From Candidatus Multivoradales bacterium (GTDB lineage: Bacteria; Acidobacteriota; Thermoanaerobaculia; Multivoradales; J023), in assembly GCA_965248925.1 (NCBI GenBank), contig CBDFLE010000005.1, positions 1,792,001 to 1,856,000 of the forward strand: a stretch of 64,000 nt of DNA, read 5' to 3'. Both the position numbers and the translations under genes were made by a program. Of the stretch, positions 16,329-23,238 are shown piece by piece. Positions within the stretch are counted from its first letter, which is position 1; each line of letters begins with the position of its first letter. The notes under the pieces are model-generated. The model was not told the DNA's origin and ran no database searches. It saw only the letters and a list, made by a program, of their open reading frames with translations.

Positions 16329-16590
16329 ATGCGTCGTTCAATGCTCTTAATACTCGCCCTCTCGCTGCTGGCGCTGCCCGTGCTTGGCCAAAGAAGAAGT
16401 CAGTTTCAGCTCTGTTGAGCTGGTCAAGTCCGGCACCGCGCCGACCCTGCAACAGATCTCGCGGGCGCACCCGCAGACTACTCCCACCGCCTACGGCGAA
16501 GTCAGCGAGGTCGTCAACCGATCCCCGGAATGGCTGCTCAATCGGGGGAGCATTTCGAGTCCCGCTGACCCGCTGCTCGACCTGGGCCTC
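16329..16590 (+). pseudogene. 5' fragment of a paralog of the upstream secreted protein, frameshifted and cut by IS3
   Basis: VELVKSGTAPTL..GEVSEVVNRSPEWLL..SSPADPLLDLGL closely matches the N-terminus of 13795..16194. Confidence 0.9.
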
Positions 16591-17426
16591 TGGAGTTGAC
16601 CCGGTTTAGTGGCCACTTCACCCACTGGGTGCAAGGAGGTCACAATGCCGAGAACACGGGTAGCATATACGCCGGAGTTTCGCTGCCGGCTGGTGGAGTT
16701 GGCACGTTCGGGTCGATCACTGAGTTCGTTGGTTCGGGAGTTTGAGCCGACGGTCGAGTCCATCCGCAAATGGGTCCGCCAAGCAGATCTGGACGAGAGG
16801 CATCGCGACGATGGTCTGACGACGGTTGAACAGCAAGAGATTCGTCGGCTTAGGCGCGAGGTTCGTCGGCTGGTCCATGAGGACACACCTTCGCTCCGGC
16901 CTGGTGCTTGAGGCGCTTGAGATGGCGCTTCATCAACGGCGGCCGAAGTCGGTCATCCATCACTCGGATCAAGGCACGCAATATACCTCGATCGCCTTGG
17001 GTCTACGCCGCAAGCGGGCAGGCGTGAGGTCCTCGATGGGCTCGGTCGGTGATTGCTTTGATAACGCCGCCATGTGCGAGAGCTTCTTTGCAACGCTCGA
17101 GTGCGAGTTGCTGGAGCGACACAAATTTCGCACGCAGATCGACGCTCGAGTGGCGACCTCCGATTTAGTCGAGGGCTGGTACAACCCACATCGACGCCAC
17201 TCTGCCTTGGGTTATCTCGGTCCCATGACGTTTGAAAGTCGTGAACTGGAACGCGCCGCATGAACGGCGACGATCAGAGGGGTATGGAAGCTGCCGCTGC
17301 TGCGGAAATCGCTGTGAGCTTACCGCATCCGCTTGGAAAACGCTGCGCGTTTCCCACAGCTCCCACACCCCCGACGACGACAGAGGTTCGAAGAGATAAA
17401 CTGTCCACCAAACCGGGGTGGCTCCA
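16591..17426 (+). mobile_element. IS3-family element with internal deletion
   Basis: Terminal IRs TGGAGTTGACCCGGTTTAGTGGCCA / rc TGGAGCCACCCCGGTTTGGTGGACA; CTC on both flanks; orfA (16645, YTPEFR..) fused near 16870 to the orfB tail (HHSDQGTQY, DNA..ESFFATLECE, WYNPHRRHSALGY). Confidence 0.92.
17285..17379 (+). other. Structured IS-associated element, copy 1 (3' of IS3 orfB)
   Basis: Colinear similarity to 20496..20606 (minus); outer stem plus two hairpins. Confidence 0.75.
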
Positions 17427-17437
17427 CTCTTAGGCAA

Positions 17438-17473
17438 CTACTTAGAAAGCTACTTAGACAGCTACATAAACAG
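17438..17473 (+). repeat. 12-bp tandem repeat, 3 copies plus a degenerate preceding copy
   Basis: CTACTTAGAAAG CTACTTAGACAG CTACATAAACAG. Confidence 0.8.
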
Positions 17474-17490
17474 CGAAAGAAGAGTTAGCG

Positions 17491-18111
17491 ATGATCGATC
17501 ATTTACTGTGGGCGGTGCCCGAACTCGAACGTGGTATCGACCAATTCGCCGAACTCAGCGGCGTCCGCGCCGCCCACGGCGGCAGCCATCCGGGGCTCGG
17601 CACTCACAACGCACTTCTCGACCTCGGTGCAGGGCGCTACCTGGAGATCCTGGCCAGCGATCCGGCTCAGCGCGGCGACCGGCGGAGCTTTGGTCGCTGG
17701 CTCGATGGGCTAACAGAACCTCGCTTGCTGACTTGGGCGGCACCCACCACCGACGCTGAAGCACTCGCCGCCCGAGCACTCGCGGCCGGATTGCAGCCCG
17801 CGACGATCGTCGAAATTACCCGCCAACGCCTTGAAGGAGGTCAGTTTCGCGGCCGCCTATTGGAGATCGGCGGCCATCCTTTTGGCCTCATCTTGCCGTT
17901 CTTCATCCAACGAGACCAGAACTCGGCCCATCCGAGCCGCGATGCGCCACGAGGAATCGAGCTAACCAACTTCGAGTTGAACCACCCGGAGGCCGAGGAT
18001 CTCCGACGCACTCTCACTCATTTGGATCTGGAATTCAGCGTTCGAGCCGCCGGGCAAACCGCCCTGCGGGCGACGCTGGCAACCCCGCAGGGCTTGATCA
18101 AGCTCGGCTGA
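17491..18111 (+). CDS. VOC / glyoxalase-like domain protein (Glyoxalase_3 type)
   Basis: IDHLLWAV, GGSHPGLGTHNALL, YLEILA.DP, LPFFIQ. Confidence 0.9.
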   Translation: MIDHLLWAVPELERGIDQFAELSGVRAAHGGSHPGLGTHNALLDLGAGRYLEILASDPAQRGDRRSFGRWLDGLTEPRLLTWAAPTTDAEALAARALAAGLQPATIVEITRQRLEGGQFRGRLLEIGGHPFGLILPFFIQRDQNSAHPSRDAPRGIELTNFELNHPEAEDLRRTLTHLDLEFSVRAAGQTALRATLATPQGLIKLG

Positions 18112-18230
18112 CGGCCTCGGCCCGTCCGTAGACCCGATCTCTTGACACAATCTTGGATACATAGTCTTGCTCGGGGATTCTTGGACTCGAGGTAAACTAA
18201 GGCCATCGAGTTCCCTGAGAAGGTCAAGCG

Positions 18231-18425
18231 ATGGGCAAGAGAAGTCAGCTGCCGTTAGCAGAACGCGAGGAAGTGGTACTGCGTTTGCTGCGCAAGGAAG
18301 AGCCGCTAGCAGCACTCTCGCGCCGGTACCAAGTAAGCGAACAGACGCTGTATCGGTGGCGTGACGAGTTTCTGACCGGCGGTCGTGAACGTCTGGCCAA
18401 GAGCCGGCGGTCGGCCGCTGGCTAG
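18231..18425 (+). pseudogene. Transposase OrfA-like HTH fragment (IS remnant)
   Basis: EVVLRLLRKEEPLAALSRRYQVSEQTLYRWRDEFLTGG; truncated, no catalytic orf follows. Confidence 0.75.
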
Positions 18426-19180
18426 GATCCCGGCCACACCGAAAAGCAGTGGTACGACGATCAGAACTTGGGGATCGAAGGGTGAAGTCTTGTAGAGCAG
18501 CGCCCATAAGGATCTGAGCCCGGCCATGGCAAGTAGCAAGGCGCAAGCGGATCTCCTTAGCCCGGTCCTCGGCCCGGGCAAGCATCAGGTTGGTGACGTT
18601 GAGGCAGGCGAGCAGCAGAAGCAGGGCGACCGCGGCCAGCAAGAGGTAGTTGGTATGGCGGCCGACCGAGCCCAAGAAAAACTCGTCGATCGGCTCGAGT
18701 TCGGCACCCCAGCCGGAGTTCGAGTCAGGGAACTGCTCGGCGAGTCGTCTAGCAAGCGCGCCGATCTCCTGATTCGCCGATCAGAGATCGACCTCGGGCT
18801 TCAAGCGGGCAAAGGCGGTGAGCCGACGATCCCCCGCGGGCGTAGGAGAATCGAGGCTGTGGAGCAAGAACAGGTCGTCGTCCTGGTTCCAAAGCCGAAA
18901 CCCCTCGGGCAGTACGCCGATGACCGTCCAGAACTCTCCATCCAGGTCGATACGCCGACCGATGATCTGAGGATCGCTGGCAAAATATCGCCGCCAGCCG
19001 CCGTCAGTCAGCACGACTTGCCGAAGCGCCGACCCACGACGCTCTTCGGCGATAGAAAAGGTACGGCCTTGACTAGCTTCGACCCCGAGCACACGAATCA
19101 AGCGCCGCCTGCCGGTGGCTCCTTCCTGCAAGGTGAATACACCGCCGGAGTCCACAGGAGCTAGTTCTGCCCAGGGCACT
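18420..19180 (-). pseudogene. ABC permease (MacB/FtsX, ADOP-type) fragments
   Basis: VVLTDGGWRRYFASDPQIIGRRIDLDG..TVIGVLP; LLLLLACLNVTNLMLARA..KEIRLRLA; LLYKTSPFDP; internal stop and large deletion. Confidence 0.8.
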
Positions 19181-19345
19181 CGGACTTGACGCCTGCACTT
19201 GATCTTGGTCTGATACCTGAGTTATCTCCGGGGCGCCGCCGCTGGCAGCGCACACCATGCCGCCGAGAGGCGCTGCAGCGGATCCAAATCCGTCACGCTC
19301 GACGCTGGTTCGGGGAATAAGGGCGCCCTCTCAGGAGGCTGCTCT

Positions 19346-20089
19346 ATGCATGGCTCTCGAAGCGGCAGGCGTGTCGGTCGCGTTGTAGGATTGTGGCTTT
19401 ACCCGGTCAAGTCGATGGGAGCGGAGGCACTGGCTGAGGTCGACGTATCCTGGCATGGCCTTACCGGCGATCGCCGCTGGGCATTCATCCTAAACGACAT
19501 GGCACAGAGCGGGTTCCCTTGGCTCACCCTTCGGGTTTGCGGGAATATGAGTCACTACACCCCGTCGTTCGTCCAGCAGTCTCGTCCAGACAAATCGCCA
19601 GCGGTCGTTCGGACTCCGTCGGGGTCCACCTTCGACGTTGCGGATCCAGCGCTGGCCGCAGAACTCTGCTCGCGCGAAGTGCGGGTGATCAAGCAGAACC
19701 GTGGCATCTTCGACACCTTCCCGCTGTCCCTCATCTCGACCCAGACGATTGGCCTGCTCGGCGACTTGGTTGGCGCCCGGCTAGAGGTCCAGCGTTTTCG
19801 ACCGAACATCTTGGTAGAGGCGGCCGATGGAACGCCGTTTCCCGAGGACGGCTGGGTTGGATGCGTCTTGCGAATCGGCAGCCTGTGCCTGCGCGTCGAC
19901 AAGCGCGACGGCCGTTGCGCCGTCGTTACTATCGATCCTGTGACGGCGGAGCGCAACCCCGCGATCCTGCGGACAGTCGCTGGTGATCGTCAGGGTTGCC
20001 TTGGGGTTTACGGATCGACCGTGGCACCTGGTCACCTCTCAGTAGGTGATCCCGTTCTAATCGAGTCGTCTCCCACGCGCTCTGGCTGA
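19346..20089 (+). CDS. MOSC domain protein
   Basis: LWLYPVKSM, GDRRWA, RFRPNILV, FPEDGW, RCAVVTIDP, LGVYG. Confidence 0.92.
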   Translation: MHGSRSGRRVGRVVGLWLYPVKSMGAEALAEVDVSWHGLTGDRRWAFILNDMAQSGFPWLTLRVCGNMSHYTPSFVQQSRPDKSPAVVRTPSGSTFDVADPALAAELCSREVRVIKQNRGIFDTFPLSLISTQTIGLLGDLVGARLEVQRFRPNILVEAADGTPFPEDGWVGCVLRIGSLCLRVDKRDGRCAVVTIDPVTAERNPAILRTVAGDRQGCLGVYGSTVAPGHLSVGDPVLIESSPTRSG

Positions 20090-20495
20090 CAACCCCGTTG
20101 ACACAACTCAGGGGGTCGCTCGCCGCACGCCAGTTGTCAATGAACACCATCCCGTTTCTGGACCTGGGAAACTGGGTGGCGACGAGAAGACCTGCCGGAG
20201 CCCGCCGATGGGTAAAGGCGGGCCGAGGAGTGGCCTCAGCGTTGGCTGGGATCCCCCACCCGAGTTTTGACCTGATCGCTCCTGAAGGGGTGCAATAGCT
20301 GCCGCAGATAGCCTTTGGGAAAGCTCTCCCGCCCCATGCCTATTCCGACGAAACTGACCAGCCATTCCGATCGAAACCGACCACTTGTCGGAGCGAAGCG
20401 ACGCTGGCGCTCTCCTCAGTTGTAAGTGTCCACTTTCGCTGTAGCTGGAGCCCTCCTTCCGGCTCTTCTTCTTGATTGATTGTATTCAAATAACC

Positions 20496-20606
20496 CGTCG
20501 TCGGGGCTGTGCGTAGCTGTGGGAAACGCAGGTTGGGGGGCAGGGGGGCGTTTTCCAAGCGGTTGTGGGAATCGCAGAGCGATTTCCACAACCGCGGCAG
20601 CTTCCA
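20496..20606 (-). other. Structured IS-associated element, copy 2 (3' of istB)
   Basis: Colinear similarity to 17285..17379. Confidence 0.75.
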
Positions 20607-20691
20607 CAGTCCATCTTGGGTCGGGTCCGGATCGGGCCGCAGGCCCGCTGATGGGTCCGGATCGGCGATCGCTTCAGCATGCTCTTGGATC

Positions 20692-21456
20692 TCACCTTGC
20701 CTCTCGCTGGGCGGCCTTGCGAATACCGCCGGCTCTCTTCGCCCGCATGGAGTCACCGTCCACCGCGAGCTTGTAGGCGCCGTGGACAGTGCGATCGAGG
20801 ATGGCGTCGGCCAAGGTCGGATCGCCGATGACCTCGTACCAGCTCTCAACCGGTAGCTGGGAGGTCACCAGCGTGGAGCGGTTGCCGTAGCGGTCCTCAA
20901 GAATCTCGAGCAGGTCGCGCCGCTCGCTGGCCCCGATCGGCGCCAGCCCCCAGTCGTCGAGGATGAGCAGGTCTGTGCGAGCATAGCTCTTGAGCAGCTT
21001 CTCGTAGCTACCATCACCCCGCGCGATGGCGAGCTGGCGAAACAGCCTCGGCACCCGCAGGTACAAAGCGGTGTAACCCTCCCGACATGCCTTGTGCGCG
21101 AAGGCGCAGGCGAGAAAGGTCTTGCCCACCCCGGCCTTGCCGGTGATCAGCACGTTGAGATGCTCGGCGATCCACTGGCACGAGGCCAGGCGCAGGATCT
21201 GGCCTTTGTCCAGGCCCCTCTTGGCTCGCCAGTCGATGTCTTCGATGGCCGCCTGCTCGCGCAGCTTGGCTTTTCGCAACCGCGCTATCAAGCGGCGGCT
21301 GGATCGCTCGGTCGCTTCGCGCTCGACCAGCAGCCCGAGGCGCTCTTCGAAGGAGAGCTCTGAGACATCGACCATCGACAGCTGCTCCTCAAAGGCTTTG
21401 GCCATACCGTGGAGCTTGAGCGCGGCGAGTTGATCGAGCGTCGCGTGCCTCAGCAT
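20692..21456 (-). CDS. istB: IS21 helper ATPase IstB
   Basis: GKAGVGKT Walker A, LLILDDWG Walker B, TSQLP, ADAILDR; ATGCTGA overlap with istA. Confidence 0.96.
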   Translation of the reverse strand: MLRHATLDQLAALKLHGMAKAFEEQLSMVDVSELSFEERLGLLVEREATERSSRRLIARLRKAKLREQAAIEDIDWRAKRGLDKGQILRLASCQWIAEHLNVLITGKAGVGKTFLACAFAHKACREGYTALYLRVPRLFRQLAIARGDGSYEKLLKSYARTDLLILDDWGLAPIGASERRDLLEILEDRYGNRSTLVTSQLPVESWYEVIGDPTLADAILDRTVHGAYKLAVDGDSMRAKRAGGIRKAAQREAR

Positions 21457-23024
21457 GGCGGCGTCTCCTCGCGGCGCGCGGCACTGTAGTAGCTGGCGCC
21501 GCGGACGTTGCGGTGCTCGATCGGCGCCGTCACTTCGGTGGGCTCGGGCGCTGCTTGCTGGTCCAGGCCGCTCTTCAGGATCGACTTCACGCTCTTGTAG
21601 GACAGGCCGTGAATGGCGAGCGCGCGGCGGCACGCAGCCTCCAAACGATTGGCACCATAGGTCTTGCCCAGGCGCATCAGCCCCAGACACGAGCGAAAGC
21701 CGTGCTGAGGATGGGAGCGGTTAAGCATGATGGTCTCCACCAGTTCGGCCGTCGCCTGGCCTGTTTTCGCCGCCCAGCTGATCAGCCGTGTCGGTGTCCA
21801 CTCCAGGTACGCCTGGTGCGCTTTGGGCATGTGCTCGCTCTGGGTCGTGTGCCGACCCCGACACCGATTGCGACGATGAGCAGCCACACGCTTGCCGCGA
21901 TCGAGCACCTCCACCAGTTGCGCCGTCGCCCGCAGATCGAGCTGCTTCTTGATCAGCTGGTACGGCACACTGTAATAGTGGCCCTCGAACTCGACGTGGT
22001 AGTCCGGGGCAACGCGTACCTTCTTCCATTCGGCAAGCTCGTAGGGCTGGAGCGGCAAAGCACCCAGAGCAGGACGATCGACCTGCTCGAACAGCGCTCG
22101 GCGCGAGACGCCCAACACCTTCAGCGGACGGTCGTTAAGCTCGACCAGAAGCTTCGCGATGCTCTCGTTGAGCTCTCGCAGGCTGAAGAACTGCTGGTTA
22201 CGCAGCCGGGCCAGAATCCAGCGCTCCACTTGCAATACACCGTTTTCGACCTTCGCCTTGTCTTGGGGCTTCCTCACCCGCGCCGGCACCACCGCCACGC
22301 CGTAGTGCTCGGCCAACTCCGCGTAGGTGCGATTGATCTCCGGCTCGTAGCGGCACGGGCTGGTCACGCCGCTCTTCAGATTGTCCGGCACCACCAGCTC
22401 GCTCACCCCGCCCAGAGCCGCGAAGGTCCGCACATGAGAGCCGATCCAGTCCTCCAGGCCCTGGCTCCACGTTGATTCGGCATAGGTGTAGTTGCTCGCC
22501 CCCAGCACCGCCACGAAGATCTGCGCTTCGCGCGCTTTGCCAGTCGCCGGGTCGATCACCCTCACGGTCTGTCCGGCATAGTCGACGAACAGCTTCTCGC
22601 CCGCCCGGTAGGCTTGGCGCAGGCACACATCCAGGCGCCCTTCCCAGATCCGGTACAGCTGACAGAAGCGGCTGAGACCGTAGCCGTCAGGATGGTCCTC
22701 CCGGTACTCCTGCCACAGCAGCGACAGGGTTACGCACTTCTTCTTCAGCTCGCCATGCACCTTGGTCCAGTCGGGCAAGGCTCGCTGACCACCCCTCCGA
22801 AGCGGCTGCGGCCGAGGGTACAGGCGTTGCTCCAGCTCAGCGTCGCTCAAAGCTGCTACTTGCTCCCAGCTCAGGCCTTCAACCTTGGCTCGCAGCAGGT
22901 AGTTGCACACCGTCCCGTGGCCCAGCCGAACCGACCGTCCGATCTGGCGGTGCGACAGGCCATGCTGCCATTTCAGTCTCAGTACCTCGCGTATCTTGCG
23001 CATCGATGTCCTCACTCTCGGCAT
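21450..23024 (-). CDS. istA: IS21 transposase IstA
   Basis: MRKIREVLRL, FVDYAG, FVAVLGASNYTYAE, VPDNLKSGV, PQDKAKVE, YYSVPY. Confidence 0.97.
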   Translation of the reverse strand: MPRVRTSMRKIREVLRLKWQHGLSHRQIGRSVRLGHGTVCNYLLRAKVEGLSWEQVAALSDAELEQRLYPRPQPLRRGGQRALPDWTKVHGELKKKCVTLSLLWQEYREDHPDGYGLSRFCQLYRIWEGRLDVCLRQAYRAGEKLFVDYAGQTVRVIDPATGKAREAQIFVAVLGASNYTYAESTWSQGLEDWIGSHVRTFAALGGVSELVVPDNLKSGVTSPCRYEPEINRTYAELAEHYGVAVVPARVRKPQDKAKVENGVLQVERWILARLRNQQFFSLRELNESIAKLLVELNDRPLKVLGVSRRALFEQVDRPALGALPLQPYELAEWKKVRVAPDYHVEFEGHYYSVPYQLIKKQLDLRATAQLVEVLDRGKRVAAHRRNRCRGRHTTQSEHMPKAHQAYLEWTPTRLISWAAKTGQATAELVETIMLNRSHPQHGFRSCLGLMRLGKTYGANRLEAACRRALAIHGLSYKSVKSILKSGLDQQAAPEPTEVTAPIEHRNVRGASYYSAARREETPPC

Positions 23025-23238
23025 CCAATTCTCCTTTCAAGGAGGCTGGAATACCCCAATTGTGAGGAGCGCGCTACCGTCGAACTCCGCCGTGGCCAGG
23101 ATTCCGATCCAATCTGACCACCCATTCCGATCGACCCGGAAAAGTGGTCACTTTCGATCGGAATCGATGGTCAGATTCCGTTGGAATCACTGGTCACTTT
23201 CAATCGGAATCGGTGGTCGGTTTCCGTCGGTGCAGGCA

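Follow-up and report, generated by a model that had tools for sequence, protein, structure and literature searches.

Insertion sequences (IS) are usually described as a transposase gene with family-specific ends. A 64,000-nucleotide (nt) stretch of the genome of Candidatus Multivoradales bacterium (Acidobacteriota; contig CBDFLE010000005.1, positions 1,792,001 to 1,856,000), hereafter the window, raises the question of what one and the same folded element of about 100 nt is doing in two unrelated IS, one of the IS3 and one of the IS21 family. The initial annotation, made from the letters alone, had proposed a cis-element or small RNA transferable between different IS families. Our analysis identified a discrete non-coding module of about 95-160 nt, made of an imperfect hairpin unit that is repeated two to four times; at least six mechanistically different IS families have this module in common, and it spans whole phyla.

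Two copies of the module in the window

The window copies and the elements that carry them have the following features:

16591-17426, plus strand: defective (internally deleted) IS3-family element of 836 bp, from an inverted-repeat search and Pfam
16591-16618 and 17399-17426: terminal inverted repeats of the IS3 element, from an inverted-repeat search
16588-16590 and 17427-17429: 3-bp CTC duplication of the IS3 element, read from the sequence
16609-16911 and 16826-17263: IS3 genes, with HTH_Tnp_1 on the first and rve/rve_3/rve_2 on the second (Pfam)
17279-17385 (core 17285-17379), plus strand: module copy 1, covariance-model match of 107.6 bits, E 1.3e-25
17285-17293 and 17357-17365: 5' and 3' arms of the outer stem of copy 1
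about 17296-17333: hairpin 1 of copy 1, decayed
17334-17356: hairpin 2 of copy 1
17279-17283 with 17367-17371: outermost GGGGT/ACCCC pairing of copy 1
17372-17379: conserved tail of copy 1
20337-23238, minus strand: complete IS21-family element of 2902 bp, named IS21a, with boundaries from more than 20 genome copies of 99.3-100% identity
21450-23024 and 20692-21690, minus strand: IstA frame and IstB frame of IS21a (Pfam IstB_IS21, Mu-transpos_C_2, rve)
both ends of IS21a: repeated subterminal motifs, with a CCCC duplication, read from the sequence
20490-20612 (core 20496-20606), minus strand: module copy 2, covariance-model match of 145.5 bits, E 1.8e-35

Both copies were found at the coordinates and on the strands given by the initial annotation, and the placement it had described (3' of the last transposition gene, in sense and inside the IS) is borne out by the gene stops and the IS ends. 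In the IS3 element, copy 1 follows the stop of orfB (17263) and precedes the right terminal repeat, and copy 2 lies 86 nt past the IstB stop and 159 nt inward of the right end of IS21a (20337). In alignment the two copies share 75-76% identity over about 95-111 nt, and their flanks are without similarity. The proposed outer stem enclosing two hairpins was returned by RNAalifold as a three-way junction, which is intact in copy 2, where the loop of hairpin 2 is C-rich; this second loop does differ in length as described, since it measures 19 nt in copy 2 and 3 nt in the other copy, and the compensatory change TGTGG/CCACA versus TGCGG/CCGCA between the copies is real. Copy 2 occurs in the same or nearly the same form in 24 copies across the genome.

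Architecture, covariation and strand asymmetry

Each unit opens with the 5' foot TGGAA and closes with the 3' foot T(T/C)CCCA, which mostly runs on as CAG; between the feet stand two complementary stem arms, free to covary, and a loop whose length ranges from 3 to about 45 nt. The paired feet leave a single A.C mismatch, and this mismatch is conserved: it is kept in 41 of 47 distinct sequences in hairpin 2, in 33 of 47 in hairpin 1 and in 32 of 42 in the outer unit, with A-T as the commonest alternative. Hairpins 1 and 2 are units standing side by side, and the three-way junction arises where a third unit, the closing stem of TGGAAGCTG with CAGCTCCCA, closes them. This closing stem is lengthened by another covarying helix (GGGCT/AGCCC in one copy, GGGGT/ACCCC in another), and an unpaired conserved tail, CCYCGACGAC, follows 3' of the units. 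In several lineages the loop of hairpin 1 contains an extra, nested unit, with an inner sequence that differs each time, and one IS21 lineage of the window's genome is reduced to two tandem units. Internal loops in the helices are never larger than a single mismatch, and the outermost arms form an inverted repeat matching at 13 of 15 positions.

Folding and covariation were each compared with shuffled controls. Copy 2 folds better than its shuffled versions (z -4.78, with 0 of 200 shuffles as good); copy 1 taken alone is no better than shuffles (z -1.09, 29 of 200 as good), because its hairpin 1 has decayed. For covariation, 47 distinct sequences drawn from many genomes were aligned with MAFFT, without fitting to a structure, and the pairs were taken from one reference row. 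Standard pairs occupy 88.5% of cells (shuffles: 77.0 +/- 0.5%); both sides have changed in 26 of 38 pairs (16.8 +/- 1.9 in shuffles); and 170 cells show a change on both sides (47.4 +/- 5.6 in shuffles). None of 500 shuffles was as high on any of these measures, although the aligned sequences are related by descent and the shuffle counts are not probabilities. As a control, partners slid by 1-3 columns gave 33-50% pairing and 19-63 cells changed on both sides, so that compensatory changes exceed both the shuffled and the slid controls on an alignment that is independent of the structure. Many of the double changes are GC-to-CG swaps, for which no wobble intermediate is possible. The same is visible at short range in the 21 IS21a copies, which differ at only 63 of 2902 columns: five of them, otherwise more than 99% identical to the rest, share a T>C and an A>G at paired positions. 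The module is thus a structured cis-element conserved by selection.

Targeted hypervariability of the loops was also considered, as 9 of the 63 variable columns of the 21 IS21a copies fall within the 112-nt module (binomial p 7e-4). We do not claim targeted variation, since variability is higher throughout the non-coding 3' end of the element than in its coding part: alignment columns 2701-2800 include 15 that vary.

The initial annotation had further noted that the arms are one mismatch away from a DnaA box. This is literally true, and the conserved 3' motif TTTCCCACA differs at one position from the TTWTNCACA consensus used there; the box-like arm of hairpin 1, however, is not conserved in other copies, where it varies with compensation (TGCGG, TATGG, CTTGG). 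A cluster of weak DnaA boxes, or of sites for some other duplex-binding protein, would help to assemble the transposition complex, and the DnaA site at the outside end of IS50 offers a model. Each module has two or three such motifs as a direct repeat, the only two strict boxes near dnaA of this genome read TTTTCCACA, and the conservation of DnaA specificity across phyla would suit a wide host range. We nevertheless consider this explanation very improbable: the mismatch falls on a fixed position of the consensus, no such cluster of boxes was seen at dnaA, and covarying inner stems around loops of such different lengths are not explained by binding to duplex DNA. Because loop lengths vary and stems covary, a folded strand is favored over an array of duplex sites.

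The two strands of the module are not equivalent. The strand reading from TGGAA to CCCACAG, which we call the outward strand, has more C than G in 45 of 47 sequences, and its unpaired columns are 42.8% C and 22.2% G. The inward-reading strand is the more stable in all 47 sequences, with a median difference of 15.8 kcal/mol, and the fold energies in the window are -56.4 kcal/mol inward and -40.0 kcal/mol outward. This stability is consistent with a structured RNA made from the inward strand, in which the A.C mismatch becomes a G.U wobble and which might serve as an antisense or 5'-leader RNA, or as a barrier to transcription arriving from host DNA. The mismatch site, mainly A.C or A-T on the outward strand, would then alternate between G.U and A-U, a typical neutral change in RNA, and the left-end leader of IS110 carriers has the inward strand as its sense strand. 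Non-canonical pairs of the outward strand point the same way (48 A.C/C.A versus 17 G.T/T.G), although these counts come from model-fitted alignments in which the lower-stem columns of hairpin 1 are uncertain, so that the strand test is suggestive and alignment-dependent. Against such an RNA, a scan returned no promoter-like site, the G-rich composition of the inward strand accounts for part of its extra stability, and an RNA of this kind at the 3' end of IS3, IS21, IS481 and IS256 elements would run antisense to the transposase gene, from which the IS would gain nothing obvious. Taken together, we regard an inward RNA as improbable.

Distribution, carriers and polarity

The window's genome (7.98 Mb in 6 contigs) was analyzed with a profile search, which returned 27 full and 2 partial copies; all 29 lie inside IS elements. 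IS21a accounts for 24 of them (21 full, one interrupted, one diverged and one fragment), and the remainder are found in a second IS21 lineage (one copy), a third IS21 lineage (two) and IS3 ends (two). In a census of genes, 26 of 34 IstB loci have a module within 600 nt. At the same distance, the census found none at a fourth IS21 lineage, IS21d (6 copies), or at a 28-copy integrase-core (rve) element, and ISL3 (0 of 11 loci) and the IS256-like and IS481-like loci of this genome are likewise without it. The sole ISL3 locus that does fall within 600 nt of a copy adjoins an IS21a end, and IS21d has only a modest, uninformative hairpin 3' of IstB. When single units were searched for strictly, 51 matches were obtained, 48 of them within known copies, as compared with 20-22 matches for perfectly paired control motifs; the 3 unit hairpins outside known copies are at chance level. 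The module is therefore confined to IS elements in this genome.

Several neighboring arrangements were observed in passing. A sibling IS3 element, 95% identical (G000 C4:27254-27743; L005), is without the central 71 nt of the module and keeps both module edges; it looks like a deletion derivative, apparently formed between short CCG repeats. One IS21a copy (G000 C5:696179-700726) is interrupted by 1.6 kb of inserted DNA, within which lies the 28-copy integrase-core element, the commonest IS of this genome. In three genomes an ISL3 transposase gene lies directly past the right end of a module-bearing IS21 (G000 C6:1355177-1356409; L025 3-1238; L052 1712-2794), an arrangement that may be due to chance or to ISL3 preferring the ends of IS21.

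To determine the host range of the module, we searched other genomes with a covariance model built from 13 variants of the window's genome. Matches were obtained in 19 of 40 other genomes of the same family or order (E <= 0.001), in 40 of 150 of the class (E <= 1e-6) and in 20 of 150 of a sample of the phylum Acidobacteriota (E <= 1e-6; 19 of 149 without G226, which is flagged as unpublished), with up to 23 copies per genome; these three samples overlap, and related genomes are not independent. An exact 27-mer was found at 32 loci, 31 of them in metagenome-assembled genomes (MAGs) labeled Acidobacteriota and one (L078) labeled "uncultured bacterium". A gapped motif was found at at least 65 loci, and among the matches listed 49 are assigned to Acidobacteriota, 5 to Gemmatimonadota and 10 to other phyla, with 1 unlabeled. 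It should be noted that many of the odd phylum labels belong to contigs only 1.7-5 kb long and may result from faulty binning. A plasmid collection yielded one match, a diverged copy (31 bits) directly 3' of an IS3 OrfB remnant on a plasmid of a cultured Bradyrhizobium, and viral contigs yielded no exact match to the gapped motif. The hosts are thus mainly Acidobacteriota, and they also include Gemmatimonadota MAGs and a Bradyrhizobium plasmid.

The neighbors of the module were identified by Pfam scans and by tblastn with transposases taken from the loci themselves. The carriers belong to at least six IS families: IS21, IS3, IS481-like integrase-core elements, IS256, IS110 and IS66. Among the IS21 carriers, the IstB lineages are only 30-40% identical to one another, and a plasmid RepA_C gene, tyrosine integrases and DUF222-HNH genes were also found as neighbors. 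The initial annotation was therefore right that the element is shared by unrelated IS and understated the number of families, which it had put at two. The wider proposal of a cis-element transferable between families is strongly supported as well, given the six or more families, the covariation and the variants that families have in common within a host lineage, described below.

For placement, 165 instances were reduced to 143 distinct contexts, of which 83 have a recognized mobile gene within 700 nt; the other 60 have no recognized gene nearby, and many of these are at contig ends. The gene lies on the 5' side of the module in 80 of the 83 contexts, all of which fit one polarity: the module separates the gene from the nearest IS terminus, and its C-rich strand points, in the 5' to 3' direction, at that terminus. 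In 68 of them gene and module are on the same strand and the module follows the stop codon, mostly by 11-100 nt. In the other 12, which comprise 9 IS110, 2 IS256 and 1 integrase, the gene is on the opposite strand, so that the module is upstream and antisense. Only three contexts have the gene on the 3' side of the module (two DUF222-HNH and one IS110). Among carriers whose ends could be placed, the module is inside the element not only in IS21a and IS3 but also in IS110, where it lies 85 nt from the left end, and in an IS256-like element, where about 90 nt of common sequence extend beyond hairpin 2. A separate arrangement occurs in some IS3 carriers (L020 602-1636, plus strand; also L062, L081 and L085), in which the OrfB frame reads through the module and stops only past it; the hairpins would there encode the last 40-50 codons of OrfB. 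The IS3 element of the window stops before the module.

Our tentative reading, held with less than even confidence, is that the module is an orientation-dependent boundary or 3'-end element which works when folded and which a host factor recognizes. A transcript leaving the IS, normally the transposase mRNA, would end or be protected at the module, where hairpins and C-rich, G-poor unpaired stretches could bring about factor-dependent termination or stabilization of the 3' end, and transcription would not cross the terminal repeat into host DNA. The invariant mismatched feet of the stems would be the docking site of a conserved, hypothetical host protein. We favor this reading because the module stands directly after a stop and before a terminal repeat, has a strict polarity and strong helices, is C-rich and G-poor in its unpaired outward stretches, and is restricted to mobile elements.

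Several observations weigh against such a boundary. A canonical intrinsic terminator is absent: no T-run follows the hairpins, the tail being C-rich, and a consensus scan was negative at 17279-17385 and 20490-20612. A plain terminator or stabilizer needs no invariant feet and would favor perfect pairing, whereas the outward RNA has A.C mismatches and the inward strand is the one that folds more stably throughout. In the 12 contexts with an upstream, antisense module, the module cannot form the 3' end of the transposase mRNA, and the three contexts with the gene on the other side break the polarity rule. IS21d, the 28-copy rve element and ISL3 all manage without a module in the same genome, and the host factor is hypothetical.

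The same polarity lends itself to a quite unlikely alternative, in which the module is a self-nesting hairpin cassette of a new class, a plug-in common to unrelated IS that a host enzyme would read as a folded single strand, for example as a priming or processing signal like a single-strand origin. In a strand-specific form of this idea, which we also judge to have little probability, hairpins would extrude as single-stranded DNA during circle formation (copy-out-paste-in) on the strand whose 3' end is the nearby terminus, and would recruit a host enzyme, possibly for complementary-strand priming as at the single-strand origins of rolling-circle plasmids. The defined strand of the module does have its 3' end at the nearest IS terminus, with the module near that end, and one copy lies 3' of a plasmid RepA_C gene. 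IS3, IS21, IS256, IS110 and probably IS481 elements form circular or tandem-junction intermediates, and a mismatch conserved within a stem that otherwise covaries is a typical trait of hairpins that are recognized as single-stranded DNA, such as integron attC sites and the ends of IS608. The strand proposed to fold is nonetheless the less stable one and bears the A.C mismatches; IS110-family recombinases exchange duplex strands and do not need replication; and, to our knowledge, the mechanism of IS66 is not established. The case for such a signal is made wholly by analogy.

Lineage-specific variants and the origin of the module

A nearest-neighbor comparison showed that similarity among module variants goes with host lineage and not with IS family. 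In one genus, copies in IS110 (upstream, antisense) and in IS21 (downstream, sense) are 92% identical, loops included, and in one other family the identity among copies in IS481-like, IS21 and IS256 elements is 81-90%. The IS3 copy of the window's genome shares 86-90% identity with that of the second IS21 lineage (IS21b), and the block of homology is the module alone. Both repeated transfer of the module between families and gene conversion among co-resident copies fit these data; under the boundary reading proposed above, co-resident copies in different IS families would be homogenized by gene conversion over the shared stretch of about 100 nt.

In G179, 14 solo copies are miniature derivatives of the resident IS110 (loci considered: L102-L115 and, from a Thermoanaerobaculia MAG, L165). 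In the G179 miniatures, 7-9 bases of one IS110 terminus are fused by microhomology to a segment comprising the module and the 85-nt opposite terminus. The fusion point is the 5' edge of the module in 9 copies and 60 nt further in for 4, and one copy has diverged.

The sharp edges of homology between unrelated IS raise the possibility that the discrete unit is a selfish miniature hairpin element, akin to repetitive extragenic palindromic (REP) sequences or miniature transposable elements with inverted repeats (MITEs), which spreads by itself, survives in the spacer between gene and IS end and has no function for the IS. The inverted repeat of the outermost arms, the nested units with their differing inner sequences and the presence of one variant in different IS families of a host lineage would all be expected of such an element, and comparable covarying hairpins near transposases are found among the mobile/repeat sequence candidates of the Breaker laboratory (Narunsky et al., 2024; PMC11109978). 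However, no target-site duplication or conserved flanking target was seen at 11 inspected junctions, and the window's genome holds no free copy. The 14 solo copies of G179 have IS110 termini and are IS110-derived rather than free modules, and no candidate mobilizing enzyme was found. The orientation bias of 80 to 3 calls for an extra assumption, and gene conversion explains the lineage-specific similarity equally well. We consider a selfish element rather unlikely on this balance.

Relation to known systems

A search of Rfam 15 gave nothing that overlaps a window copy at E up to 1, and eight module-bearing IS110, IS256 and IS481 loci were likewise without a match at E up to 0.1. The module belongs with the structured repeats of mobile DNA, among which it is unusual for its presence inside at least six unrelated IS families, its fixed polarity and its host-tracking variants. 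Our literature searches, whose reach excluded ISfinder and subscription journals, found no description of it.

REPs stabilize upstream mRNA and act as terminators or as protein-binding sites. Like REPs and the bacterial interspersed mosaic elements (BIMEs) that they form, the module consists of short, imperfect palindromes in clustered arrays, in which a foot and an irregularity are conserved. Unlike them, its units all have one orientation, are nested or in tandem, lie inside IS instead of serving as IS targets, are not dispersed in intergenic DNA and have no REP 5' tetranucleotide. An association of IS elements with REPs is on record (Tobes and Pareja, 2006; PMC1525189). The genome has 11 weak Y1_Tnp (IS200-like) matches (e.g., G000 C6:3366815 and C5:709232) in several repeat families of about 1.4 kb. 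A link to REP-associated tyrosine transposases (RAYTs) was rejected, as these 11 loci are repeats of their own, with no module copy adjacent and without the motif. The module resembles a MITE in its terminal inverted repeat (13 of 15) and its length of 95-160 nt; it departs from one in having no target duplications at the inspected junctions, no free copies and no parent IS with matching ends.

Like the module, the mobile/repeat sequence candidates mentioned above are small, multi-copy, covarying hairpins near transposases, ambiguous as to a role in DNA or RNA form (Narunsky et al., 2024; PMC11109978). The module differs in that its position and polarity are fixed in six unrelated IS families, and the published example is a single long stem and a different repeat (PMC11109978). 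Non-coding modules are also described for the IS110 family, namely the bridge RNA (Durrant et al., 2024; PMC11208160) and the Ssr9 small-RNA module of ISPpu9 (PMC12288879). In IS110 carriers our module sits in the long left end, the site from which RNAs of this sort are made, and the miniature derivatives keep it. A bridge RNA was rejected because the module is on the strand opposite the recombinase in 9 of 12 IS110 cases and has no guide loops; moreover, unlike these RNAs, it is equally present in DDE-transposase families that are free of guide RNAs.

Host-factor sites and protective structures are known near IS ends, including sites for integration host factor (IHF), the DnaA box of IS50 and the structures that shield IS10 and IS50 from outside transcription. 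The module is similarly subterminal, between gene and terminal repeat, with a presumed dependence on the host. Those sites, in contrast, are short and family-specific, whereas the module is one homologous structured stretch of 100 nt across families and phyla.

If the module is functional, it would represent a common requirement of unrelated transposons, which might concern a host factor, the boundary of transcription or a step involving single strands. If recognized in the form of a folded single strand, it would be a common point of host dependency for many IS families of soil phyla, and its lineage variants would record exchange between co-resident elements. If selfish, it would be a parasite of parasites. 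In practice, it could serve as a sensitive marker of IS ends in assemblies of Acidobacteriota and Gemmatimonadota, in which it is a likely source of contig breaks and of recombination between different IS.

Finally, a match to the SAH riboswitch aptamer was observed between the two carriers at 19259-19335 on the plus strand of the window. It is below threshold (31 bits against a gathering score of 37; E 0.009) and lies directly 5' of a MOSC-domain gene at 19346-20089 (Pfam).

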